From a virus (taxonomy: Duplodnaviria > Heunggongvirae > Uroviricota > Caudoviricetes), in IMG/VR virus record IMGVR_UViG_2778261350_000008, positions 1-12,505 of that record: a DNA stretch of 12,505 nucleotides. The stretch is one strand, 5' to 3'. Below are positions 1 through 12,505 of the stretch, piece by piece. The notes under the pieces were generated by a model. That model saw only the letters and a program-made list of their open reading frames with translations. It did no database searches and was not told the origin of the DNA. Each line of letters begins with the position of its first letter. Positions within the stretch are counted from its first letter, which is position 1. A program made the position numbers and the translations under genes.

Positions 1-273
1 AGCCGGATTGGCGTGGGGAATCTCTACCGGCTGATGCGCGGCTATGCCACCGGCGGTTATGTCGGTACACCGGGCAGCATGGCGGAGAGCCGGTCGCAGG
101 CGTCCGGGAAGTTTGAGCAGAATAACCATGTGGTGATTAACAACAACGGCACGAACGGGCAGATAGGTCCGGCTGCTCTGAAGGCGGTGTATGACATGGC
201 CCGCAAGGGTGCCCGTGATGAAATTCAGACGCAGATGCGCGATGGTGGCCTGTTCTCCGGAGGTGGACGATGA
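1..273 (+). CDS. H: Tail tape-measure protein H, C-terminal fragment (5' end lies outside the window)
   Basis: Frame 1 is open from base 1 to the TGA at 271-273. The translation (...GNLYRLMRGYATGGYVGTPGSMAESRSQ...IQTQMRDGGLFSGGGR) matches my recollection of the lambda gpH C-terminus. Its stop overlaps the next ATG (ATGA), as in lambda H/M. Confidence 0.8.
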   Translation, partial: SRIGVGNLYRLMRGYATGGYVGTPGSMAESRSQASGKFEQNNHVVINNNGTNGQIGPAALKAVYDMARKGARDEIQTQMRDGGLFSGGGR

Positions 274-599
274 AGACCTTCCGCTGGAAAGTGAAACCCG
301 GTATGGATGCGGCTTCGGCTCCTTCCGTCAGGGAAGTGCGCTTTGGTGATGGTTACTCCCAGCGCTCGCCTGCCGGGCTGAATGCCGACCTGAAAACGTA
401 CAGCGTGACGCTCTCTGTCTCACGCGAGGAGGCCACGGCGCTGGAGTCGTTTCTGGCTGAACACGGGGGCTGGAAGGCCTTTCTGTGGACGCCGCCTTAT
501 GGCTACCGGCAGATAAAGGTGACCTGCGCAAAGTGGACAGCGCGGGTCAGCATGCTTCGTGTTGAGTTCAGCGCAGAGTTTAAACAGGTGGTGAACTGA
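270..599 (+). CDS. M: Minor tail protein M
   Basis: 109 aa, the same length as lambda gpM and near-identical as recalled (MKTFRWKVKPGMD...LRVEFSAEFKQVVN). Position H-M-L is conserved and the gene is overlap-coupled on both sides. Confidence 0.9.
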   Translation: MKTFRWKVKPGMDAASAPSVREVRFGDGYSQRSPAGLNADLKTYSVTLSVSREEATALESFLAEHGGWKAFLWTPPYGYRQIKVTCAKWTARVSMLRVEFSAEFKQVVN

Positions 600-1297
600 T
601 GCAGGATATCCGACAGGAAACACTGAATGAATGCACCCGTGCGGAGCAGTCGGCCAGCGTGGTGCTCTGGGAAATCGATCTGACAGAGGTCGGTGGAGAA
701 CGTTATTTTTTCTGTAATGAGCAGAACGAAAAAGGCAAGTCGGTTATCTGGCAGGGGAGAGAGTATCAGGCGTATCCCATTCAGGGGAGTGGTTTTGAAC
801 GGAATGGCAAAGGTGCCAGTACGCGGCCCACGCTGGCAGTCTCTAACCTGTACGGCATGGTCACCGGTATGGTGGAAGATATGCAGAGTCTGGTCGGCGG
901 AACGGTGGTCCGGCGCAAGGTCTACGCCCGTTTTCTGGATGCGGTGAACTTCATCAACGGAAACAGCGACGCCGATCCGGAGCAGGAGGTGATCAGCCGC
1001 TGGCGCATTGAGCAGTGCAGCGAACTGAGCGCGGTGAGCGCCTCTTTTGTACTGGCCACGCCGACGGAAACGGATGGCGCTGTTTTCCCGGGGCGTGTCA
1101 TGCTGGCCAACACCTGCACCTGGACCTATCGCGGTGATGAGTGCGGTTATGATGGTCCGGCTGTCGCGGATGAATATGACCAGCCGACGTCCGATATCAC
1201 GAAGGATAAATGCAGCAAATGCCTGAGTGGCTGTAAGTTTCGCAATAACGTCGGCAACTTTGGCGGCTACCTTTCCATTAACAAACTTTCGCAGTAA
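599..1297 (+). CDS. L: Minor tail protein L
   Basis: 232 aa, the lambda gpL length. The start overlaps the M stop (TGATG). Cys-rich C-terminus (CTWTYRGDECGYDG...CSKCLSGCKF) as in gpL-family proteins. Confidence 0.9.
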   Translation: MQDIRQETLNECTRAEQSASVVLWEIDLTEVGGERYFFCNEQNEKGKSVIWQGREYQAYPIQGSGFERNGKGASTRPTLAVSNLYGMVTGMVEDMQSLVGGTVVRRKVYARFLDAVNFINGNSDADPEQEVISRWRIEQCSELSAVSASFVLATPTETDGAVFPGRVMLANTCTWTYRGDECGYDGPAVADEYDQPTSDITKDKCSKCLSGCKFRNNVGNFGGYLSINKLSQ

Positions 1298-1302
1298 ATC
1301 CC

Positions 1303-2046
1303 ATGACAGAGACAGAATCAGCGATTCTGGCGCACGCCCGGCGATGTGCGCCAGCGGAGTCGTGCGGCTTCGTGGTGAGAACGCCGGAGGGGGAAAGGTA
1401 TCTTCCCTGCGTGAATATCTCCGGTGAGCCGGAGGCGTATTTCCGGATGGCTCCGGAAGACTGGCTGCAGGCAGAGATGCAGGGTGAGATTGTGGCGCTG
1501 GTCCACAGCCATCCCGGTGGACTGCCCTGGCTGAGTGAGGCTGACCGGCGGCTGCAGGTGCAGAGTGATTTGCCGTGGTGGCTGGTCTGCCGGGGGGCGA
1601 TTCACAGGTTCCGCTGTGTGCCGCATCTTACCGGGCGGCGCTTTGAGCACGGGGTGACGGACTGTTACACGCTGTTCCGGGATGCTTACCATCTGGCGGG
1701 AATTGAGATGCCGGATTTTCATCGTGAGGATGACTGGTGGCGTAACGGTCAGAATCTCTATCTGGATAACCTTGAAAGACATGGTTTTTACCGTGTCGCA
1801 CTGACAGAGGCACAGCCGGGCGATGTGCTGCTGTGCTGCTTTGGTTCATCGGTGCCGAATCATGCCGCCATTTACTGCGGCGACGGTGAGCTGCTGCACC
1901 ATATTCCTGAACAACTGAGTAAACGAGAGAGGTACACCGACAAATGGCAGCGACGCACACACTCCCTCTGGCGTCACCGGGCATGGCACGCATCTGCCTT
2001 TACGGGGATTTGCAGCGATTTGGCCGCCGCATCGACCTTCGTGTGA
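1303..2046 (+). CDS. K: Tail tip assembly protein K (JAB/MPN-like plus NlpC/P60-like domains)
   Basis: 247-aa ORF starting 5 bp after L. Contains a JAMM-like motif HSHPGGLPWLSEAD (H-x-H-x7-S-x2-D) and an NlpC/P60-like Cys/His pair (GVTDCYTLF ... NHAAIYCGDGELLHH). An internal ATG at 1447 would give the 199-aa form usually annotated for lambda K. The 3' end overlaps I by 103 nt, as in lambda. Confidence 0.85.
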   Translation: MTETESAILAHARRCAPAESCGFVVRTPEGERYLPCVNISGEPEAYFRMAPEDWLQAEMQGEIVALVHSHPGGLPWLSEADRRLQVQSDLPWWLVCRGAIHRFRCVPHLTGRRFEHGVTDCYTLFRDAYHLAGIEMPDFHREDDWWRNGQNLYLDNLERHGFYRVALTEAQPGDVLLCCFGSSVPNHAAIYCGDGELLHHIPEQLSKRERYTDKWQRRTHSLWRHRAWHASAFTGICSDLAAASTFV

Positions 2047-2579
2047 AAACGGGGGCCGAAGCCATCCGGGCGCTGGTCACACAGCTTCCCGCCTTTCGTC
2101 AGAAACTGAACGACGGCTGGTATCAGGTACGCATTTCCGGACAGGATATATCCCATGAAACATTGTTCACACAGATGAATGACACACTGCCTCCGGGCGC
2201 GGTAATACATATTGTCCCTCGCCTGGAGGGGGCAAAAAACGGAGGGGTTTTTCAGGTCGTGGCCGGTGCTGTGCTTGCTGTTGTCGGTTATGCATTAAGC
2301 TGGACAGGCATAGGTGCGGTTATTGGCAACCTTGGTGTGGCCATGATGCTTGGAGGGGTGGCACAGATGCTGGCCCCTAAATCCAGAACTCCCCGTACAC
2401 AGACAACGGATAACGGCAAACAGAATACCTATTTTTCATCACTGGATAACATGATTGCCCAGGGGAATGTTCTGCCCGTTCTGTACGGTGAAATGCGCGT
2501 GGGGTCGCGGGTGGCATCTCAGGAGATCAGCACGGCAGATGAAGGGGATGGTGGCCAGATAGTGGTGATTGGTCGATGA
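1944..2579 (+). CDS. I: Tail assembly protein I
   Basis: 211 aa. N- and C-terminal regions match lambda gpI as recalled (MAATHTLPLASPGMARICLYGDLQRFGRR... ; ...NGKQNTYFSSLDNMIAQGNVLPVLYGEMRVGSRV...). A hydrophobic Gly/Ala-rich middle is present. Starts inside the 3' end of K in another frame. Confidence 0.85.
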   Translation: MAATHTLPLASPGMARICLYGDLQRFGRRIDLRVKTGAEAIRALVTQLPAFRQKLNDGWYQVRISGQDISHETLFTQMNDTLPPGAVIHIVPRLEGAKNGGVFQVVAGAVLAVVGYALSWTGIGAVIGNLGVAMMLGGVAQMLAPKSRTPRTQTTDNGKQNTYFSSLDNMIAQGNVLPVLYGEMRVGSRVASQEISTADEGDGGQIVVIGR

Positions 2580-2597
2580 TGAAATACGTTTTATGTG

Positions 2598-2626
2598 AAA
2601 CCGCCTCCGGGCGGTTTTGTCGTTTA
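2598..2626 (+). terminator. GC-rich hairpin plus T-rich tract in the I-J intergenic gap (terminator-like or attenuator-like)
   Basis: Inverted repeat AAACCGCC (2598-2605) / GGCGGTTT (2610-2617) with loop TCCG, followed by TGTCGTTT. It sits 14 bp before the J start, so it cannot be a fully efficient terminator if J is expressed. Confidence 0.35.
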
Positions 2627-2639
2627 TGGAGCGTGAGTA

Positions 2640-5600
2640 ATGGGTAAAGGTGGTGGTAAGGCGCATACGCCCCGTGAAGCCAGAGATAATCTGAAATCAT
2701 CCCAGATGCTGAGTGTGATTGATGCCATCAGCGAAGGACCGGTTTACGGGCCTGTTGACGGGCTGAAAAGCGTGTTTCTGAACGGCACGCCGGTACTGGA
2801 CCGTGAGGGGAATGCTAACTTTTCCGGTGTCACTGTGGTGTTCCGTGCCGGTGAACAGGAGCAGACACCACCGGAGGGCTTTGAATCCTCCGGTTCAGAA
2901 ACGGTGCTGGGGACGGAAGTGAAATATGACACGCCGATCACCCGGACCATCACGTCGGCAAATATCGATCGTCTGCGCCTGACCTTCGGCGTGCAGGCAC
3001 TGGTGGAAACCACCTCAAAGGGGGACCGTAACCCCTCTTCTGTCCGCCTGCTGGTTCAGATACAGCGTAACGGTGGCTGGGTGACGGAAAAAGACATCAC
3101 CATTAAGGGCAAAACCACGTCCCAGTATCTGGCCTCGGTGGTGGTGGATAACCTGCCGCCGCGACCGTTCAGTATCCGGATGCGCAGGATGACGCCGGAC
3201 AGCACCACAGACCAGTTACAGAACAAAACGCTCTGGTCGTCATACACTGAAATCATCGATGTGAAACAGTGCTACCCGAACACGGCACTGGTCGGCGTAC
3301 AGGTGGACTCGGAGCAGTTCGGCAGTCAGCAGGTGAGCCGCACTTACCATTTTCGGGGGCGTATTCTGCAGGTGCCGTCGAACTATAACCCGCAGACGCG
3401 GCAGTACAGTGGTATCTGGGACGGAACACTTAAACCGGCATACAGCAACAACCCGGCCTGGTGTCTGTGGGACATGCTGACCCATCCGCGCTACGGCATG
3501 GGGAAACGTCTTGGTGCGGCGGATGTGGACAAATGGGCGCTGTATGTCATCGGCCAGTACTGCGACCAGTCAGTGCCGGACGGCTTTGGTGGCACGGAGC
3601 CGCGCATCACCTGTAATGCCTGGCTGACCACACAGCGTAAGGCGTGGGATGTTCTCAGCGATTTCTGCTCGGCGATGCGCTGTATGCCGGTATGGAACGG
3701 GCAGACGCTGACGTTCGTGCAGGACCGGCCGTCGGATAAGGTGTGGACCTATAACCGAAGTAATGTGGTGATGCCGGATGATGGCGCTCCGTTCCGCTAC
3801 AGCTTCAGCGCCCTGAAGGACCGCCATAATGCCGTTGAGGTGAACTGGAGTGACCCGGATAACGGCCAGGAGACGGCGACAGAGCTTGTGGAGGACACAC
3901 AGGCCATTGCCCGTTACGGTCGTAACGTCACGAAGATGGATGCCTTTGGCTGTACCAGCCGGGGGCAGGCACACCGCGCCGGGCTGTGGCTGATTAAAAC
4001 AGAACTGCTGGAAACGCAGACCGTGGATTTCAGCGTCGGCGCAGAAGGGCTTCGCCATGTACCGGGCGATGTTATTGAAATCTGTGATGATGACTATGCG
4101 GGGATCAGCACCGGTGGTCGTGTGCTGGCGGTGAACAGCCAGACCCGGACGCTGACGCTCGACCGTGAAATCACGCTGCCATCCTCCGGCACCACGCTGA
4201 TAAGCCTGGTTGACGGAAGTGGCAATCCGGTCAGCGTGGAGGTTCAGTCCGTCACCGACGGTGTGAAGGTGAAAGTGAGCCGTGTTCCTGACGGCGTTGC
4301 AGAATACAGCGTGTGGGGGCTGAAGCTGCCGACGCTGCGCCAGCGCCTGTTCCGCTGCGTCAGTATCCGTGAGAACGATGACGGCACGTATGCCATCACC
4401 GCCGTGCAGCATGTACCGGAAAAAGAAGCCATCGTGGATAACGGGGCGCACTTTGACGGTGACCAGAGCGGCACGGTGAATGGTGTCACGCCGCCGGCAG
4501 TGCAGCATCTGACCGCCGAAGTCACCGCAGACAGCGGGGAATACCAGGTGCTGGCGCGATGGGACACGCCGAAGGTGGTGAAGGGTGTGAGCTTCCTGCT
4601 TCGTCTGACCGTGGCAGCGGACGACGGCAGTGAGCGGCTGGTCAGCACAGCCAGGACGACGGAAACCACATACCGCTTCAGGCAGCTGGCGCTGGGGCGT
4701 TACACGCTGACGGTACGGGCGGTAAATGCCCAGGGGCAGCAGGGGGATCCGGCGTCGGTATCGTTCCGGATTGCCGCACCGGCAGCGCCGTCACGGATTG
4801 AGCTGACGCCGGGCTATTTTCAGATAACCGCCACGCCGCATCTTGCGGTTTATGATCCGACGGTACAGTTTGAGTTCTGGTTCTCGGAAAAGCGGATTGC
4901 GGATATCAGGCAGGTTGAAACCACAGCCCGCTATCTTGGCACGGCGCTGTACTGGATAGCTGCCAGTATCAATATCAAACCGGGCCATGATTATTACTTT
5001 TATATCCGCAGTGTGAACACCGTTGGCAAATCGGCATTCGTGGAGGCTGTTGGTCAGCCGAGTGATGATCCATCCGGCTATCTGGATTTTTTCAAAGGAG
5101 AGATAGGGAAAACCCATCTGGCTCAGGAGCTGTGGACGCAGATTGATAACAGTCAGCTTGCGCCTGACCTGGCTGAAATCAGGACGTCCATTACGGGTGT
5201 CAGCAATGAAATCACGCAGACTGTCAATAAGACACTGGAAGACCAGAGTGCAGCGATCCAGCAGATACAGAAGGTTCAGGTTGATACCAGTAATGACCTG
5301 AACAGCATGTGGGCTGTGAAGCTGCAACAGATGAAGGACGGACGCCTTTATATCGCGGGTATTGGTGCCGGTATTGGGAACACCCCCGACGGCATGCAGA
5401 GTCAGGTGCTGCTGGCGGCAGACAGGATTGCGATGATTAATCCTGCAAATGGCAACACAAAGCCGATGTTTGTGGGGCAGGGCGATCAGATATTCATGAA
5501 CGACGTGTTCCTGAAATATCTGACGGCTCCCACCATTACCAGTGGTGGTAATCCTCCGGCATTTTCCCTGACACCGGACGGGCGGCTGACGGCGAAAAAT

Positions 5601-6119
5601 GCGGATATCAGCGGTAACGTGAACGCGAACTCCGGGACGCTCAACAATGTCACGATTAATCAGAACTGCCGGATTCTGGGAAAACTGTCAGCCAATCAGA
5701 TTGAAGGCGATCTCGTTAAAACAGTGGGCAAAGCTTTCCCGCGGGACTCCCGTGCACCGGAGCGGTGGCCATCAGGGACCATTACCGTCAGGATTTATGA
5801 CGATCAGCCGTTTGACCGGCAGATTGTTATTCCGGCGGTGGCTTTCCGCGGTGCCAGACATGAGCGGGAGAATAGCGATACTTATTCGTCATGCCGTCTG
5901 ATAGTGAAGAAAAACGGTGCTGAAATTTATAACCGAACGGCTCTGGATAATACGCTGATTTACACGGGTGTTATTGATATGCCTGCAGGCAGTGGCGTAA
6001 TGACACTGGAGTTTTCTGTATCAGCATGGTGGGTAAATGGCTGGTATCCCACAGCGAGTATCAGCGATTTGCTGGTTGTTGTGATGAAGAAATCCACTGC
6101 AGGCATCACGATTAGCTGA
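2640..6119 (+). CDS. J: Tail tip / host-specificity protein J (central tail fibre)
   Basis: 1159-aa ORF (lambda J is 1132 aa) directly after I. GGAG lies 9 nt upstream of the ATG. Position and size are diagnostic; the divergent C-terminal ~250 aa would be the receptor-binding part. Confidence 0.9.
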
Positions 6120-6137
6120 ATTTTATAACCCAGATAC

Positions 6138-6163
6138 GGGCGCCAGAAATGGCGCCTTTTTTA
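6138..6163 (+). terminator. Rho-independent terminator after J
   Basis: Perfect palindromic stem GGCGCC (6139-6144) / GGCGCC (6151-6156) with loop AGAAAT, immediately followed by TTTTTTATT. Confidence 0.6.
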
Positions 6164-6186
6164 TTACAGAAAAGCGAGAGGTAATT

Positions 6187-6786
6187 ATGCGTAAAGTTTG
6201 TGCCGCCATTTTGTCCGCTGCCATCTGTCTGGTCGTATCCGGTGCGCCTGCATGGGCGTCTGAGCAGCAGGCCACACTGAGTGCAGGGTATCTTCATGCC
6301 CGGACGAACGCTCCCGGCAGCGATAATCTGAACGGGATTAACGTGAAATACCGTTATGAGTTTACGGACACGCTGGGGCTGATTACGTCCTTCAGTTATG
6401 CCAGTGCCGAAGATGAGCGAAAAACGCACTACAGCGATACCCGCTGGCATGAAGATTCCGTGCGTAACCGCTGGTTCAGCGTGATGGCGGGGCCGTCTGT
6501 GCGCGTGAATGAATGGTTCAGCGCGTATGCGATGGCGGGTATGGCTTACAGCCGGGTGTCGACTTTTTCCGGGGATTATCTCCGCGTAGCTGACAACACG
6601 GGGAAAACGCACGATGTGCTGACCGGAAGTGCTGACGGTCGCCACAGCAACACGTCTCTGGCGTGGGGCGCTGGCGTGCAGTTTAACCCGACCGAATCCG
6701 TGGCCATTGATGTCGCTTATGAAGGTTCCGGCAGTGGCGACTGGCGTACTGACGGTTTCATCGTGGGTGTTGGTTATAAATTCTGA
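6187..6786 (+). CDS. lom: Lom / Ail / PagC-family outer-membrane beta-barrel protein (lysogenic-conversion type)
   Basis: 199 aa. N-terminal signal peptide MRKVCAAILSAAICLVVSGAPAWA. The C-terminus ...VDVAYEGSGSGDWRTDGFIVGVGYKF matches the lambda Lom C-terminus as recalled. GAGAGG RBS; lambda-like position after J. Confidence 0.85.
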   Translation: MRKVCAAILSAAICLVVSGAPAWASEQQATLSAGYLHARTNAPGSDNLNGINVKYRYEFTDTLGLITSFSYASAEDERKTHYSDTRWHEDSVRNRWFSVMAGPSVRVNEWFSAYAMAGMAYSRVSTFSGDYLRVADNTGKTHDVLTGSADGRHSNTSLAWGAGVQFNPTESVAIDVAYEGSGSGDWRTDGFIVGVGYKF

Positions 6787-6808
6787 TTGTTAACACAGCT
6801 TTACGACA

Positions 6809-6835
6809 GCCCGCCGGTTCAGGCGGGCTTTTTTG
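6809..6835 (+). terminator. Rho-independent terminator after lom
   Basis: Stem GCCCGCC (6809-6815) / GGCGGGC (6822-6828), loop GGTTCA, followed by TTTTTTG. Confidence 0.6.
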
Positions 6836-6845
6836 TGGGGTGAAT

Positions 6846-9200
6846 ATGGCAGTAAAGATTTCAGGTGTACTGAAAGATGGTGCAGGTAAGCCGGTACAAA
6901 ACTGCACTATTCAACTGAAAGCCAGACGTAACAGCACCACGGTGGTGGTGAACACGGTGGCCTCAGAAAATCCGGATGAAGCAGGTCGTTACAGCATGGA
7001 TGTTGAGTACGGTCAGTACAGCGTCAGTCTGTTGGTGGAGGGGTTCCCGCCGTCACATGCCGGGACCATCACCGTCTATGAAGATTCCCGACCCGGTACG
7101 CTGAATGATTTTCTCGGTGCCATGACGGAGGATGATGCCCGTCCGGAGGCACTGCGGCGTTTTGAACTGATGGTGGAAGAAGCGGCACGTAACGCTGAAG
7201 CCGCCTCTAAGAGCGCAGCGGCGGCAAAGAAATCCGAAACTGCAGCGGCATCATCGAAGAACGCGGCGAAAACCTCAGAAACGAATGCAGCTAACAGCGC
7301 ACAGGCGGCAGCGACCTCACAGACTGCATCAGCAAACTCCGCGACAGCAGCCAAAAAATCAGAAACCAACGCGAAAAACAGCGAGACAGCCGCAAAGACG
7401 AGTGAAACTAACGCAAAGTCCAGCCAGACGGCAGCGAAGACCAGCGAAACGAATGCCAAAGCCAGTGAAACTGCGGCGAAAAGCAGTCAGGATGCAGCAG
7501 CCGAAAGCGAGAGTGCTGCAGCCGGTTCTGCGACTTCAGCAGCTGGATCAGCAACTGCTGCGGCTAACAGCCAGAAAGCCGCGAAGACGAGCGAAACTAA
7601 CGCAAAGTCCAGCCAGACGGCAGCGAAGACCAGCGAAACGAATGCCAAAGCCAGCGAAACTGCGGCGAAAAACAGTCAGGATGCAGCAGCCCAAAGCGAG
7701 AGTGCCGCAGCTGGTTCTGCAACAGCGGCAGCTAATAGCCAAAAAGCTGCAAAAACCAGTGAAACTAACGCAAAGACGAGTGAAACAAAAGCAGCAGCCA
7801 GCGAGACAGAAGCAACGTCAGCCGCAACAAGAGCAGAGAATGCAGCCCGGATTGCAGAAGATGCCGCTGATCCTGCTTCTGTCCCTCCGCTTCCTGATAT
7901 CTGGCTACCCTTGAATGATTCTCTGGAAGCGATAACAGGGTATGCCCCGGGCTATAAAACAATAACCATCGGCAGTGATGAAATAACAATGCCTGTTAAT
8001 GGCATATGCCAATTTAGCCGGGCTTCATCTGCAACGTATATTGATAAGTCCGGGCATATTACCGTGGCAGGGAATAACGTTCCTCGTTTTGAAAAATATG
8101 GTTTGCTGATAGAGAATCAGCGAACAAACATGTTCGTAAATAGTTTTAATCCTGATGCCTGGAATAAAAGCGGTGGTATATCTGTAACATCATCAACAGA
8201 TGAATTTGAGTTTAAATATGGACGTTTCACGGTAGGAAGCGATATAGCAGGAACGACAACAGGGCGAAATATATGCACAGTTGCTGGTAACAAAGGCATA
8301 GATGTGACTGGCGATGAACAGTACAGTAAAGGTCCGTATGTTACCGCGTCGTTCAGGGTAAGAAGTGATCTCAATGTTCGCGCACGTATCCGTTTTGAAC
8401 GGTATAACTCGGAAGGATACACCTTCCTTTGCGACGCCTATTTGTCATTACAGACCCATGAACTACAAATTACTGGTGGCAATGCCCAGCTATTAACAGC
8501 AAACTTTGAAATCGATCCAGGTAGTGGATGGATATATTTTCAGGCAACACTGAAATGTCTGCCAGAATGGGGAATGGTTGGTACGCAGCTGCAAATTGCA
8601 GCCGACAGAGCAGTGGGGGCTTTTGCAACAGGTGACTGGATAGAAGTAACCACCCCGCAATTCGAGTATGGTGCCTGTGCAACTTCCTTTATCATAACGA
8701 CAACAGAGCCAGCGACTCGTGCATCAGATTTATGTAAATTTCCGCTGATGAAAAATATGTATACCATGCCTTTTACGTTCATGGTGGAAGTCCATAAAAA
8801 CTGGTTTATTTCTCATAATGCTGCACCGCGTGTCATTGATTCAGAAAATCACCAGTCCGGAGGCCCATTTATTATGGGGTTTGGTTCTTCTGGAACTATC
8901 AGTCAGGATGGTTATTCGTATTGCGATATAGGCGGGGCTAACCGGCGTGTATATGAGTCATGCGGAGTAAGAGATCTCGTTATGGGATTCAGGGTTAAGG
9001 CTGACGGCATGACATGCTCATTTGCAAATAAGAATATAAGCACTGAAACCAAAACAGTATGGAAATATATTCGTGAAGCAGCCGTGATTCGTATCGGGGG
9101 GCAAACGACGACAGGATTACGACACCTTAATGGTCATATAAAAAACCTCCGTTTCTGGAACAGAGCATTGTCAGATACGCAGATTAAGGAATACGTATAA
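6846..9200 (+). CDS. stf: Side tail fibre protein, mosaic: lambda Stf-like N-terminus, Ala/Ser/Thr repeat shaft, foreign C-terminal receptor-binding region with a lectin-like (LamG/ConA-type) end
   Basis: N-terminus MAVKISGVLKDGAGKPVQNCTIQLKARRNSTTVVVN...VYEDSRPGTLNDFLGAMTEDDARPEALRRFELMVEE matches lambda Stf as recalled. The ORF track begins at a GTG (6840); the ATG at 6846 gives the lambda-like start. Residues ~120-330 are low-complexity SETNAK-type repeats. From about nt 7880 the DNA is visibly AT-richer, and the protein ends ...LRHLNGHIKNLRFWNRALSDTQIKEYV, which resembles the terminal strand motif of LamG-like jelly-roll domains. Confidence 0.8.
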   Translation: MAVKISGVLKDGAGKPVQNCTIQLKARRNSTTVVVNTVASENPDEAGRYSMDVEYGQYSVSLLVEGFPPSHAGTITVYEDSRPGTLNDFLGAMTEDDARPEALRRFELMVEEAARNAEAASKSAAAAKKSETAAASSKNAAKTSETNAANSAQAAATSQTASANSATAAKKSETNAKNSETAAKTSETNAKSSQTAAKTSETNAKASETAAKSSQDAAAESESAAAGSATSAAGSATAAANSQKAAKTSETNAKSSQTAAKTSETNAKASETAAKNSQDAAAQSESAAAGSATAAANSQKAAKTSETNAKTSETKAAASETEATSAATRAENAARIAEDAADPASVPPLPDIWLPLNDSLEAITGYAPGYKTITIGSDEITMPVNGICQFSRASSATYIDKSGHITVAGNNVPRFEKYGLLIENQRTNMFVNSFNPDAWNKSGGISVTSSTDEFEFKYGRFTVGSDIAGTTTGRNICTVAGNKGIDVTGDEQYSKGPYVTASFRVRSDLNVRARIRFERYNSEGYTFLCDAYLSLQTHELQITGGNAQLLTANFEIDPGSGWIYFQATLKCLPEWGMVGTQLQIAADRAVGAFATGDWIEVTTPQFEYGACATSFIITTTEPATRASDLCKFPLMKNMYTMPFTFMVEVHKNWFISHNAAPRVIDSENHQSGGPFIMGFGSSGTISQDGYSYCDIGGANRRVYESCGVRDLVMGFRVKADGMTCSFANKNISTETKTVWKYIREAAVIRIGGQTTTGLRHLNGHIKNLRFWNRALSDTQIKEYV
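7392..7748. repeat. In-frame tandem duplication inside the stf shaft (two units of about 189 and 168 bp)
   Basis: 7392-7580 and 7581-7748 are near-identical; unit 1 carries an extra 21 bp (7 aa, SAAGSAT). Each encodes AAKTSETNAKSSQTAAKTSETNAKASETAAK(S/N)SQDAAA(E/Q)SESAAAGSAT...AAANSQKA. Shorter, degenerate copies of the same motif flank it from about 7230 to 7800. Confidence 0.7.
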
Positions 9201-9469
9201 TGCGGGATATAACATTACGATTCGATAACAGAGAACAGTTTAACGCAATTGTATATGACAGTGGCCTGTTCAGTCTTGAAGAAGAAAATGGGATTCTTGT
9301 TGATGTTATTGGCGGCATTATTGATTACGAGGAGCCAGAAAACGAAAGATGTACAGGCATTGATCGCGGTGGTTTTTTCGTAAACATGAGGATTGTTGAT
9401 GGCAGTAAAAACATATCTTCTTTAATGCCTTTCATTACGACAGATCAGCATGTAAGGACATGGGCTTAA
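9200..9469 (+). CDS. Hypothetical 89-aa acidic protein, start-coupled to stf (candidate cognate fibre chaperone or accessory protein)
   Basis: Its ATG overlaps the stf stop (TAATG at 9198-9202). AAGGAA lies 8 nt upstream. AT-rich like the stf 3' half. I recognise no homologue. The same frame stays open for 39 codons after its TAA. Confidence 0.45.
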   Translation: MRDITLRFDNREQFNAIVYDSGLFSLEEENGILVDVIGGIIDYEEPENERCTGIDRGGFFVNMRIVDGSKNISSLMPFITTDQHVRTWA

Positions 9470-9593
9470 TGGAGCTTGCTTGTTCAGGTAGCCAGAGAAT
9501 CAGACGACAGAATAACAGCACTGGAAGAAGAAAACGCAGAATTAAGACAAAGATTATCTGCAATTGAGGCGGCGCTTGCGTCTGAATAATATT

Positions 9594-9618
9594 AAGGGGC
9601 CGAGCGCCCCGTTTTATT
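9594..9618 (+). terminator. Terminator-like hairpin ending the stf / small-ORF transcription unit
   Basis: Stem GGGGC (9596-9600) / GCCCC (9606-9610), loop CGAGC, followed by GTTTTATT. Confidence 0.45.
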
Positions 9619-9631
9619 GGGTAGGATGAAA

Positions 9632-9925
9632 ATGGATATAACACCTTTCCTTCATGCACTTTGTGCTGTGGCTGCGCAGGTACTGATTGGCCTTTTTACC
9701 GGAAACTGGGTTTACGGTGCGATAGCTGGTTGTACGTTCTTCATTGCGCGGGAACACACCCAGGCAGAATATTGCTGGATTGAAATGTTCGGGCATGGCA
9801 AGCGAATGAATATGCCGTGGTGGGGCGGTTTTGATCCGCGTGCTTGGGATGTGGCAAGCCTGATGGATTTTGCTGTGCCGGTGGTGGCGTGTCTGCTGGT
9901 CTGGCTGTTGGTTAATCGTGGGTGA
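9632..9925 (+). CDS. Hypothetical small inner-membrane protein with two predicted TM helices (prophage cargo candidate)
   Basis: MDITPFLHALCAVAAQVLIGLFTGNWVYGAIAGCTFFIA...DVASLMDFAVPVVACLLVWLLVNRG: two hydrophobic segments flank a charged, Trp-rich loop (EHTQAEYCWIEMFGHGKRMNMPWWGGFDPRAWD). AGGA lies 6 nt before the ATG at 9632. In-frame alternatives are ATG 9626 and TTG 9617. Codon use looks coding-like. No homologue recognised. Confidence 0.55.
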   Translation: MDITPFLHALCAVAAQVLIGLFTGNWVYGAIAGCTFFIAREHTQAEYCWIEMFGHGKRMNMPWWGGFDPRAWDVASLMDFAVPVVACLLVWLLVNRG

Positions 9926-9935
9926 AAAAAGGTGA

Positions 9936-10057
9936 GCTGTATATGCAACGGAGGAAGAAACCCCGTTGCTGGCGGCATGGAAGAAGTATCGGGTGCTGCT
10001 CAACCGAACTATACATCAGTAGCTCCGGACATTGAGTGGCCTGTACAACCGGAATAA
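9936..10057 (+). pseudogene. tfa: 3' remnant of a lambda-type tail fibre assembly gene (tfa), truncated and frameshifted
   Basis: One frame reads [28 protein letters not shown]. A second frame continues YTSVAPDIEWPVQPE* (ATG-initiated MEEVSGAAQPNYTSVAPDIEWPVQPE at 9977-10057). Together these match the lambda Tfa C-terminus as I recall it (...[36 protein letters not shown]...). No N-terminal portion is present; the segment begins right after the stop of the membrane-protein gene. Confidence 0.6.
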
Positions 10058-10079
10058 ATATCAGGAGGAGTAATTAATC

Positions 10080-11215
10080 GTGTCGACTCTGATTTCCGGC
10101 GTATTAAAAGATGGTGCAGGTATACCGCTGGCTGCCAGATTATCCTGAAATCCCGTGTAAACACCTCAGATGTGGTGATGTCTGTTGTTGCGCATATTGT
10201 AACCGGGCAAAACGGGGAATATGCGTTTGAGGCCCGGACGGGGAAGTACAGCGTTTATCTGAAGACTGACTGGCGTAATGAGTTTCAGGTTGGTGTTATT
10301 TCTGTTTATGAGGACTCACAACCGGGCACACTGAACGACTTCCTGATAGCAGTGAGTGATGCTGATTTGAAGCCGGACGTTCTGCGGCGGTTCGATGAGC
10401 TGGCGAGGCGTGTCCATGAAGACGCGAACAGCGCAGAACAGTTTGCCGGAGATGCCCGTCGTGCTGTGGATGAACTGGGCGGTAAGGTTCAGGACGATAT
10501 TCGTGACCGTACACCGGACCGTCTGGCTCTGCCCGGTGCTTACGGCTTCGGCGGAATATTCAGCCGCTCGGAAGCTCTGTCGTTTCAGGGGGTATCTGAT
10601 TTTGGTGCGTGGCTACAGAAAGCCACGCCGGGGCGTTATCCGGTCACTGTTGCGGATTCTTCTGCATTGCTGTTGGGCACCACGAAATTTAACGGCAACA
10701 TTGATGTGCTGTGGTCACCCTTTGATAACGACGGGTCGGACACAGCGCACAAATTCAAAACGCTGTTGTGTTACAACGAGCCACGTGCCGGAGAGCACGG
10801 GCTACACCTGCTCCAGTACTGGTACGAGGGCGACAACCTGCGGGTTGCGGGCAGTATGATAGTCTGCGACGCTCCGTCGCTGGCGACACTGCTGTCAGCA
10901 ACAGCGGGAGCGGACCCGTCAGGGTTCTACCGTTATCCGGCGGTGGGTTCCCTGTTGCTGGCAGCGTACCACGGGGCATCTGCCGGTGCTGGCGGGGTGA
11001 GTATTGCAACAGGCGACGTTGTTCCGGGCTCCTGTCTGGGGCCGGTGAGTATTCCGTGCGCGGTGAACGAAGGCGGCACAACTCCGTCGCCGCTGCGGGC
11101 GTTTGTTGGTGGTGCCGGACAGTACAATTTCCCCGGACGTTACCAGGCGTTATCCGGTGCAAATAATGTCCGTGGAAACAATGGGTTTATCTGTCTGTTT
11201 GTGCGCGTTGAGTAG
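10080..11215 (+). pseudogene. Second tail fibre gene (Stf N-terminal paralogue), disrupted by a 1-nt frameshift near 10131-10133
   Basis: The GTG at 10080 (GGAGGAG upstream) opens a frame reading VSTLISGVLKDGAGIPLAARLS*, which stops at 10146-10148. The -1 frame continues ...CQIILKSRVNTSDVV and joins the 347-aa ORF 10172..11215. The joined product aligns with the stf N-terminus (ISGVLKDGAG ; C-Q/T-I-x-LK ; VYEDSQPGTLNDFL ; LRRF-EL). The C-terminal part is Gly/Ala-rich and GC-rich. Confidence 0.6.
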
Positions 11216-11222
11216 GTGAGAA

Positions 11223-11816
11223 ATGAACGCAGTAAAAGATATTCGCAATCCGGTGCATCTCGGAAACGGCGCGGTTGACTGTGAGGTGCTGTTTGAGGGG
11301 CGCAGCGAGTACGTTGTTTATACGGCTGCGCCGGGCGACGCAGCCCCGACAGGTCAGCGTATCTGGCAGGAACTACAGAGCGGCAAATGGGGCGAAATTG
11401 CCCCGTTCACGGCCACGCCGGAACTGATAGCGGCGGCGAAGGATGCAAAACGTCAGGAAATTGAGGTGTGGCGTACCGAACAGGAAGCGCAGTCGTTCAC
11501 GTTTGAGTGGAACGGTCGAACCTGGAACGCGGGGCCGTCCTCACTGGCCCGGCTCACGCCTGCGATTACGGCGGCGGAATACGCCGGCGAGCAGGCTGTT
11601 ACCTGGAGCGATACAACCAACGAGCCGGTAAACCTGACAGTGCAGGAACTGAAATCGCTGGCCGTCGCACTGGCTCAGGCACTCTCTGAGCGGAACAACG
11701 CGATTTATCGTCGCCAGCGGGAGATGAAGGATACGTTAAACACCCTGGAGAATCTGGCAGAGGTGCAGGCGTTTAAGGTTGGAGAACAATCTATATTGGG
11801 GGTAAGCCGTATTTAG
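11223..11816 (+). CDS. Putative tail fibre assembly / chaperone protein (assigned by position)
   Basis: 197-aa ORF 8 bp after the stf2 stop, with AGGTGAG RBS. Contains a W-N-G-x-(T/A)-W motif ([11 protein letters not shown]) reminiscent of Tfa proteins (lambda Tfa has WNGTAW), but it lacks the lambda-type Tfa C-terminus seen in the remnant at 9936-10057. Confidence 0.5.
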
Positions 11817-12120
11817 CTCTTGCGCGGTTACACGCCTCATTGACGACGCCGTTCTCGCCAGACATGGCGAATTCTCTGCATGTGGATGATCGATTTTCAT
11901 ATATCGTGCAGCAGGCATTTTTGCCCGGAGTTCCAGCAAGGGCAACACATCTGGGGTTTTTCTGGTTTGTACCGATCATGCATCGGTGAAAAGGCGATAC
12001 TTGTTCAGTAAGTCTGGCGGGAATGGTGCCGCCGGCATCGTCGGCTTCGGCCCAGTAAAAAGAGACGCGGAAAAATGCACAACAGGCGCCACACGTCATG
12101 CATGGATTCAGATTGCTCAT
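11791..12120 (-). CDS. ykgJ: YkgJ-family cysteine-cluster protein (putative Zn/Fe-binding; UPF0153)
   Basis: 109 aa, beginning [25 protein letters not shown], i.e. the C-x2-C-G-x-C-C signature of the YkgJ family, with further C-terminal Cys residues ([17 protein letters not shown]). Convergent with tfa2 and overlapping it by 26 bp. Confidence 0.65.
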
Positions 12121-12139
12121 AATTCACCAGTACAGCTAT

Positions 12140-12188
12140 AAATCATAAAGAAAACAGCGGTACGTCGTATGAAAGAACTTACCGCTGT
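12140..12188 (-). terminator. Possible minus-strand terminator downstream of the DinI-like gene
   Basis: Inverted repeat ACAGCGGTA (12154-12162) / TACCGCTGT (12180-12188). On the minus strand it is followed by TTTTCTTTATGATTT. The 17-nt loop is large, hence the low confidence. Confidence 0.3.
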
Positions 12189-12256
12189 TGGCTGGTGAAC
12201 TTTTCGATAGTGCGAGTATTGAATGATTTCCAGCCGTTACCGATTTTACTCGTTAA

Positions 12257-12505
12257 TTAGCGAACAAACCACTCGTCAGCAGACTCCCAGGTATCTTTCA
12301 GCGTCTCCTGAACAAAAGTTTTTGCAGAATCTTTATCGGCGGTGCGAGTAACTGAAAGGCCATCGTTGCTGGTGGCTTTTATGATCACTTCTACATCGTC
12401 ATAACGCTTACTGATGCGTCGGGTTAATTCTTCCTTTAACGCATCCACAGCACCGTTTGGCATTTTAGTCATTTTTTCTTTGGCTATGCAGATCTCAATA
12501 CGCAT
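12257..12505 (-). CDS. DinI-family protein (DNA-damage-inducible protein I-like; modulator of RecA filament activity)
   Basis: 82 aa, [31 protein letters not shown]...[16 protein letters not shown]. Co-linear with E. coli DinI as recalled (MRIEVTIAK...AIDAL..EL.RRI...ETWESADDWFV). The ATG is the last three bases of the window (minus strand), so the promoter lies outside. Confidence 0.85.

Follow-up and report, generated by a model that had tools for sequence, protein, structure and literature searches.

Near the right end of a 12,505-nucleotide (nt) stretch of viral DNA (Caudoviricetes; IMG/VR record IMGVR_UViG_2778261350_000008, positions 1 to 12,505, analyzed at its full length and termed here the window), a ykgJ-like and a dinI-like gene lie behind the tail genes, on the opposite strand. 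Are these two genes part of the phage, or do they belong to the chromosome that flanks an integrated prophage? The preliminary description of the window had left this open, and had suggested that a DinI paralogue at a prophage edge may modulate RecA-dependent induction. Our results show that the dinI–ykgJ pair is prophage cargo, located in the position of the lambda b region, and not host flank. We consider it highly probable that positions 11791-12505 constitute an accessory b-region SOS cassette of an mEp460-like lambdoid prophage inserted in the 5′ end of dusA, for which we propose below a mechanism involving LexA and DinI.

Position of the pair within a prophage in dusA

Eight complete Escherichia coli genomes contain the window at 97.6-100% identity, and in strain A24 the identity is ~100%. 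In the three genomes inspected beyond the window (A24, KC-Dl-1 and GN05064), dinI is followed on the same strand by a gene encoding a tyrosine integrase of 365 amino acids (aa; PF00589), which begins 88 nt from the dusA start, and then by the divergent genes dusA–pspG–qorA–dnaB. The left end of the prophage is found ~46.7 kb away, after lexA–dinF–yjbJ–zur, where attL retains the original dusA 5′ end, now displaced. Both ends carry an imperfect dusA repeat of 17 base pairs (bp), ATTGC(C/T)CC(G/T)ATGCTTGA, whose two copies, 46.7 kb apart, are identical at 15 of the 17 positions. An integrase gene at the 5′ end of dusA together with imperfect direct repeats at both ends assigns the prophage to the dusA-integrating elements, as this combination is the signature of dusA-specific integrases (Farrugia et al., 2015, PMC4482086). 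The dusA junction, attR, is situated about 1.3 kb past the window end, in agreement with the suspicion in the preliminary description that attR is nearby. We regard the pair as cargo because the integrase gene sits between dinI and dusA, because the att repeats enclose the pair, and because the free phage mEp460 has the order tail fibre–dinI–integrase.

The prophage is a complete lambdoid genome, with a PrtN-type excisionase, early-left genes, CI, cro, replication genes, Q, lysis genes, iss/bor, terminase, head and tail genes. Its CI repressor contains HTH_3 and Peptidase_S24 domains and is of the self-cleaving type. The full dinI–ykgJ module was found in 18 of 5426 complete E. coli genomes, eight of them with window-like and ten with divergent copies, and all six copies that were inspected are located at a prophage end.

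The window itself holds the tail end of this lambda-like prophage, and the examined pair takes up its last 715 bases (Table 1). The plus strand encodes, in this order, the 3′ end of the tape-measure gene, M, L, K, I, J, lom and a 786-aa side tail fibre, followed by small open reading frames (ORFs), a second tail fibre (10172-11215) and the DUF4376 assembly-like gene. The gene identities and strands given in the preliminary description, as well as the 26-bp overlap of the tfa-like and ykgJ-like ORFs (11791-11816), were borne out by the ORF list and by Pfam (PF03692 and PF06183). Its term "convergent" applies in that each gene of the pair opposes the tail genes and the pair converges with tfa, but not to the relation between dinI and ykgJ, which run in the same direction.

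The overlap is a scar of a module junction, where the tfa frame reads on into the adjoining module until it meets a stop codon. This is indicated by two borders: most phage homologues of the tfa-like protein match residues 1-186/187 of its 197 only (two extend to 194), with the PHROG profile ending likewise at ~187-189, and no more than ~15 nt separate the ykgJ stop codon from the point where similarity to the chromosomal ykgJ locus sets in. With its last ~10 codons, tfa crosses this junction and reads antisense through the 3′ end of ykgJ.

Table 1. Features at the window's right end, with the evidence for each.
Feature	Positions	Strand	Evidence
Tail-fibre-assembly-like (tfa) gene, 197 aa, last of the tail module	11223-11816	+	PF14301 (DUF4376), 1.5e-16; PHROG 1141 'tail fiber protein', residues 2-189/197
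ykgJ-like gene, 109 aa	11791-12120	-	ORF list; PF03692 CxxCxxCC, 43.5 bits
Terminator-like hairpin and U-rich run	12140-12189	-	RNA fold; arms 12153-12162 and 12180-12189
~60-nt near-invariant lambdoid b-region element	12190-12249	. (unassigned)	Matches in 199 phage records
dinI-like gene, 82 aa	12257-12505	-	ORF list; PF06183 DinI, 70.5 bits; PHROG 189, 6e-31

Some observations concern other parts of the same prophage. The gene of the 786-aa side tail fibre (6840-9200, plus strand) encodes long Ala/Ser/Thr/Lys-rich repeats (…AAKTSETNAK…, roughly 7200-7900) and shows long ORFs in other frames too; it is unbroken in the window, and its counterpart in strain A24 is annotated in RefSeq as two pseudogene fragments. 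Between the two tail-fibre sets (9200-10170) there are small conserved phage ORFs at 9200-9469 (PHROG 1361) and 9617-9925 (PHROG 1443, hydrophobic), along with annotated pieces of tail fibre and tail-fibre-assembly genes, and this mixture suggests an earlier exchange of the host-range module. At the attL-proximal end (extract L004, 10740-12270) a Panacea-domain protein, a domain that we take to be toxin–antitoxin-associated, and two small ORFs adjoin the PrtN-type excisionase. The lysis region (extract L004, 28594-28878) includes iss/bor and a tRNA-Ile.

The dinI promoter and a possible role in prophage induction

The dinI start codon coincides exactly with the window end, which places the dinI promoter outside the window. 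The preliminary description had proposed looking there for a LexA box, and a genome with the window at ~100% identity has two canonical boxes there, 14-61 nt past the end of the window. Read along the dinI strand, this sequence is TTGACA – CTGTTTATCCATACAG – (T)TAAAAA – TAA – TACTGTATACAAACACAGTA – TAGAGGGACTTTT – ATG. It resembles a sigma-70 promoter (TTGACA-17-TAAAAA) with one predicted LexA box, CACTGTTTATCCATACAGTT, in the promoter spacer between TTGACA and TAAAAA, beginning at -61, and a second, TACTGTATACAAACACAGTA, over the transcription start region, beginning at -33; counted outward from the window end, the two boxes are at positions equivalent to 12519-12538 and 12547-12566. A canonical box (CTGT-N8-ACAG) that overlaps the promoter is the sequence hallmark by which the gene would fall into the SOS regulon. 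The chance expectation for this motif is 0.32 per 31 kb; the search recovered lexA's own box as a positive control, and the only other canonical match in the prophage was a GC-rich chance match in the tape-measure gene. Since the same layout of TTGACA, box, TAAAAA, box and Shine-Dalgarno sequence precedes dinI in eight loci with otherwise unrelated upstream DNA (prophages at dusA, prfC, mlrA/btsS [yehV-yehU] and ssrA, and the genomes of phages mEp460 and cdtI), the promoter, the boxes and dinI seem to form a portable SOS cassette.

The dinI-like protein matches PF06183 with residues 16-80, well above the cut-off of 24.2 bits, and is 45% identical to E. coli DinI (PDB 1GHH; E 1e-12). The acidic C-terminal helix of DinI (WESADDWF in the E. 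coli protein) is a DNA mimic that contacts RecA; in the window protein it is represented by TWESADEWF (residues 72-80), aligned to TWESADDWF of 1GHH.

Downstream of dinI, a spacer of 136 bp (12121-12256) leads to ykgJ, with the ~60-nt element on the dinI side and a hairpin on the ykgJ side. The hairpin (12153-12189, minus strand) consists of a 10-bp stem and three inner pairs, is followed by UUUUCUUUAU, has z = -3.2 in an RNA fold of 12110-12270, and is placed 33 nt upstream of the ykgJ start. Across phages the letters of the stem vary, and the pairing and the T-run are retained, three pairs having undergone compensatory changes. A simple terminator scanner overlooked the hairpin, as its loop exceeds 8 nt. 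We read the hairpin and its U-run as the predicted terminator of dinI.

We propose that LexA would hold the cassette off in the lysogen, and that upon DNA damage LexA would be cleaved and DinI made along with the rest of the SOS regulon. By its acidic C-terminal helix DinI would bind the RecA filament, and the bound protein might temper or time RecA-stimulated cleavage, including that of the prophage's own S24-type CI. ykgJ would probably be expressed at a low level, either by transcription that passes the hairpin or by means of a weak promoter, and would be a passenger gene, commonly lost by phages, with no part in the induction switch. That DinI modulates prophage induction, as proposed in the preliminary description, is a reasonable idea because the prophage CI is of the S24 self-cleaving type.

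Several points count against this proposal. The sequence of the LexA boxes comes from genomes with the window at 99-100% identity, beyond the window itself, and the control of the cassette by LexA and its induction by DNA damage are inferred from the promoter sequence only. The dinI-like protein reaches 71 bits in NCBIfam NF007893, below the DinI equivalog cut-off of 111 bits; it is a paralogue of E. coli DinI, and its RecA binding is assumed from the 45% identity. The terminator-like hairpin between the two genes makes their co-regulation uncertain, and no sigma-70 promoter for ykgJ passed a scan of the spacer. An AlphaFold2 model of YkgJ, built from a 32-sequence alignment, was too poor for use (predicted local distance difference test 47, predicted template modelling score 0.31). 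Finally, non-polar deletions of the dinI homologues of the Gifsy prophages had no significant effect on induction (PMC3121763), for which reason any effect of DinI on induction is likely to be subtle. The reports that we found in the literature on DinI function in prophages cover chromosomal dinI or describe no effect.

The ykgJ gene and the conserved spacer element

The 109-aa product of the ykgJ-like gene scores well above the PF03692 cut-off of 23 bits and is identical to K-12 YkgJ at 104 of 109 residues. A Cys cluster, C7-x2-C10-x2-C13-C14, and two further cysteines, C71 and C81, are invariant in 32 homologues. The window and chromosomal genes differ at 32 nt, with 25 synonymous and 6 non-synonymous changes (ratio of non-synonymous to synonymous substitution rates, dN/dS, 0.054; dS 0.45). 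By its sequence, the window ykgJ has been upheld as a coding gene, is under purifying selection and is no recent acquisition. PHROG, PADLOC and PDB searches with the window YkgJ returned no relative, and a role in defence or anti-defence was rejected as there was no PADLOC match. Judged by its family, YkgJ is most likely a small [4Fe-4S] protein. Its relative FliB is a [4Fe-4S]- and S-adenosylmethionine-dependent lysine methyltransferase (PMC8598068), and the authors who described DpdM, a phage preQ1 methyltransferase, name YkgJ as its E. coli homologue (PMC10516641).

The intact ykgJ is the unusual part of the module, as phages usually keep a stump. None of 216 phage records with dinI and the spacer holds ykgJ beyond about the first 38 codons, full-length phage homologues of YkgJ were found in two Acinetobacter phage records only (49% identity), and in all three divergent E. 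coli module copies inspected ykgJ is frameshifted or truncated.

The 60-nt element (12190-12249) is better conserved than the adjoining coding DNA and includes an invariant GGCTGG…CCAGCC stem. It is found in lambda (24170-24256, between ea47 and ea31), HK97 (20936-21040, adjoining sib), phage 21, HK446, phages carrying Shiga toxin (Stx) genes and the E. coli chromosome; the 199 phage records of Table 1 match a 241-nt query around it. The element constitutes the core of a sequence (window ~12189-12286) of the same family as attB-in-PP_2, a 96-bp secondary attachment site at which lambda-like phages enter other prophages and which has homology to the region between ykgJ and ecpE (Nakamura et al., 2021, PMC8112680). 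The identity of the window sequence is 91% to the chromosomal ykgJ/ecpE region and 81.6% to PPompW_EH1992 (12189-12286), and its flanks are as described by these authors (184 bp on the ykgJ side and 29 bp on the dinI side). The published site and the window copy differ in that the latter is known as a homologous sequence only, and in that the authors derive the prophage sequence from the chromosome. The element (48-60 nt) was considered as an attP and ruled out for HK446, where the annotated thrW-type attP is 230 bp away.

These data bear on the possibility that ykgJ is functionless and heading for decay, and that the segment matters chiefly as a landing pad, similar to attB-in-PP_2, for other lambdoid phages. 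Lambda-like phages do use the homologous 96-bp site to integrate into prophages (PMC8112680), the window has the matching sequence, nearly every other carrier has ykgJ in truncated or frameshifted form, and the promoter scan for ykgJ gave no result. We nevertheless regard this possibility as unlikely, considering that ykgJ is intact in the window with a dN/dS of 0.054 relative to the chromosomal copy, that the identity to the PPompW site is 81.6% only, that no phage integrated into this particular prophage was seen, without a search aimed at such insertions, and that in phages such as HK446 an unrelated thrW-type attP is found ~230 bp from the 60-nt core, which is therefore not simply an att site.

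The spacer also bears on the suggestion, far less probable still, that the pair acts as a Gifsy-type switch, that is, an operon under LexA control whose gene behind dinI, ykgJ in this case, encodes an antirepressor that inactivates a non-cleavable repressor. Gifsy induction is set off by an operon consisting of a LexA box, dinI, an antirepressor gene (gfoA/gftA) and irsA (PMC3121763), and the window DinI is 45% identical to that of Gifsy-2. However, the spacer (12121-12256) has no ORF of at least 20 aa on the minus strand, that of dinI, and a hidden antirepressor ORF on that strand was therefore rejected. IrsA is a DUF1367 protein, whereas the gene downstream of dinI in the window belongs to PF03692 and no DUF1367 gene is next to it; for the same reason Gifsy IrsA was rejected as a YkgJ protein, and a tblastn search with YkgJ gave no Gifsy record. 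The repressor also differs, as CI has the Peptidase_S24 self-cleavage domain. The chromosomal YkgJ found across E. coli, to which the window YkgJ is 95% identical, is not linked to any repressor at its locus, and ykgJ has been lost from most phages that have the dinI cassette.

That dinI and ykgJ are chromosomal genes adjoining attR, outside the prophage, is hardly conceivable: ykgJ is near-universal on E. coli chromosomes, at 91% DNA identity to the window copy, and a chromosomal dinI exists in E. coli, but the att repeats enclose the pair, the integrase separates it from dusA, the full pair is present in only 18 of 5426 genomes and at a prophage end in six of six inspected copies, the K-12 zur–dusA order is broken by the 46.7-kb element, and mEp460 virion DNA contains the dinI cassette.

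Two further observations were made in the spacer. Short plus-strand ORFs that are labelled 'capsid/nucleocapsid protein' elsewhere were rejected, being out of frame in the window owing to a 1-nt indel. On the plus strand, antisense to the ykgJ 5′ end and the spacer, 12022-12186 gave a sub-threshold Rfam match to CssrB (36.6 bits, gathering threshold 76; E 2e-5), which was not reproduced in the homologous regions of K-12 or VT1-Sakai. CssrB is a small RNA (sRNA) encoded on the Shigella chromosome.

The chromosomal ykgJ locus and the closest known systems

The preliminary description held that synteny of both genes in prophage-free strains would speak for host genes. ykgJ is indeed found beside a decayed dinI in such a context, the chromosomal yagU–ykgJ–ecpE region of 5251 of 5426 E. 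coli genomes, but this context itself looks like a fossil prophage end. The region is 91% identical to window 11807-12314, a stretch that spans ykgJ, the hairpin and the 60-nt element and extends into the dinI 3′ end. In K-12, past a 22-nt deletion, DinI-like peptides are still encoded, including KNRLNDVEAIVNITCNDGLS, and VQETRKG…ANEWF aligns to VQETLKD…ADEWF. On the other side, remnants of a lambda-type stf C-terminus and of tfa, both frameshifted, are left in the K-12 yagU–ykgJ spacer, oriented as they are in the window; the tfa remnant corresponds to lambda Tfa residues 136-159 (58% identity, E 1.8e-5) and includes KKYRVLL. The two loci are thus alike in their collinear order of tail-fibre sequences, ykgJ, hairpin and 60-nt element, and dinI, and differ in that dinI, stf and tfa are decayed pieces on the chromosome, which has there no LexA box, integrase or att site, and are all intact in the window.

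The K-12 remnants are located in NC_000913.3 300000-306000 (local ~3653-3791 and 4184-4495), and the tail-fibre part coincides with the region of the sRNA EcsR2. The same stretch of tail-fibre remnants and EcsR2 is covered by a match to Rfam IS009 (RF02111, 202 bits; local 3612-3811) over the yagU–ykgJ spacer. IS009 has no counterpart in the window, where the intact tfa-like gene is found instead.

The distribution of ykgJ gives clues to its history. In 71 of 80 species-representative GTDB loci a YkgJ homologue (68-79% identical) is encoded between ompW and yciC–yciB–yciA–tonB, the carriers including E. albertii, Salmonella, Klebsiella and Enterobacter. No ykgJ remnant was found in the 356-bp yciC–ompW gap of K-12. 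ompW in turn serves lambdoid phages as an attachment site. Other locations are occupied by the nine closest homologues (81-94%): yagU/ecpE in E. coli and Shigella, the neighborhood of icd (the e14/phage-21 site) in both E. whittamii and Escherichia sp. E1V33, and, in C. braakii, a place next to a lom-like and a DUF1833 gene, which we read as phage-tail related. The dinI–ykgJ arrangement was rejected as a conserved pair of Enterobacteriaceae, as a dinI remnant accompanies ykgJ in only three records of the 80 loci, all of E. coli or Shigella; in one other locus a dinI-like match is ~2.7 kb from ykgJ and not adjacent to it.

We lean slightly toward the view that a phage-borne ykgJ came with the right arm of a lambdoid prophage and was fixed between yagU and ecpE, and that the ancestral ompW–yciC gene was lost in E. 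coli. If so, the window may be a living, intact copy of the ancestral phage module. Nakamura et al. (PMC8112680) proposed that the attB-in-PP_2 sequence moved from the chromosome to the prophage. We favor transfer the other way, or descent from a common phage source, because the 60-nt element is present in lambda, HK97 and phage 21, and because dinI and tail-fibre remnants flank the chromosomal ykgJ. A bolder extension would be that YkgJ has been kept because it works with the SOS/DinI system, an idea prompted by a ΔykgJ mutant that filaments in biofilms (PMC8743551).

For the dinI cassette itself these results change little, as it is of a known kind and its effect on induction is seemingly subtle. 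The main added value is in the intact ykgJ and its bearing on where the ykgJ locus of E. coli came from. With the complete module present in the prophage family of the window, the yagU–ecpE interval becomes readable as a fossil arm that comprises the EcsR2 region, ykgJ and a reused attachment-site sequence, and the published direction of transfer of that sequence would be reversed. With the prophage, two copies of ykgJ, of which one may be SOS-linked, are also naturally available for probing the role of YkgJ.

The dinI–ykgJ module is already known from the annotation of VT1-Sakai, and annotations of dinI cassettes with SOS boxes, located at the tail-fibre end in lambdoid and Stx prophages, go back years. 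At the right end of VT1-Sakai (Sp15, AP000400), H0001 is annotated as DinI and H0002 as 'similar to E. coli K12 YkgJ', with a putative SOS box and a 'promoter of H0001 and H0002'. The cassette is likewise located after tail fibre genes and at an att site, is 89.5% identical in DNA over window 12014-12505, and shares the promoter architecture, the spacer and the hairpin. It differs in that the homology to ykgJ covers ~the first 38 codons (H0002 is a 66-aa ORF), compared with the full 109 aa in the window, in that one LexA box is degenerate, and in that its neighbor is attR in yehV/mlrA, where the window has the integrase.

The overall map of the window prophage is the same as that of mEp460 (NC_019716), with the order tail fibre–dinI–promoter–integrase–…–PrtN-type excisionase. 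Its dinI is 92% identical in DNA, the SOS promoter with both LexA boxes is identical, and a gene for an integrase of the same length, 365 aa, comes directly next. In contrast to the window, mEp460 has no ykgJ, and the homology ends within the spacer. Gifsy-1, -2 and -3 (Lemire et al., 2011, PMC3121763) share with the window a dinI under LexA control, predicted for the window gene, the DinI proteins being 45% identical; their unit, however, comes after replication genes, includes a gene for a 73-aa antirepressor and a DUF1367 gene, and goes along with non-cleavable repressors, whereas in the window there is no antirepressor ORF, ykgJ is next and CI is of the S24 type. The chromosomal DinI of E. 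coli (1GHH; RecA complex 7YWA) differs from the window protein, which is 45% identical to it and under the equivalog cut-off, is phage-borne and is preceded by two LexA boxes; the two proteins have in common the fold family, the length, the acidic motif of the C-terminal helix and the control by a LexA box predicted for the window gene.

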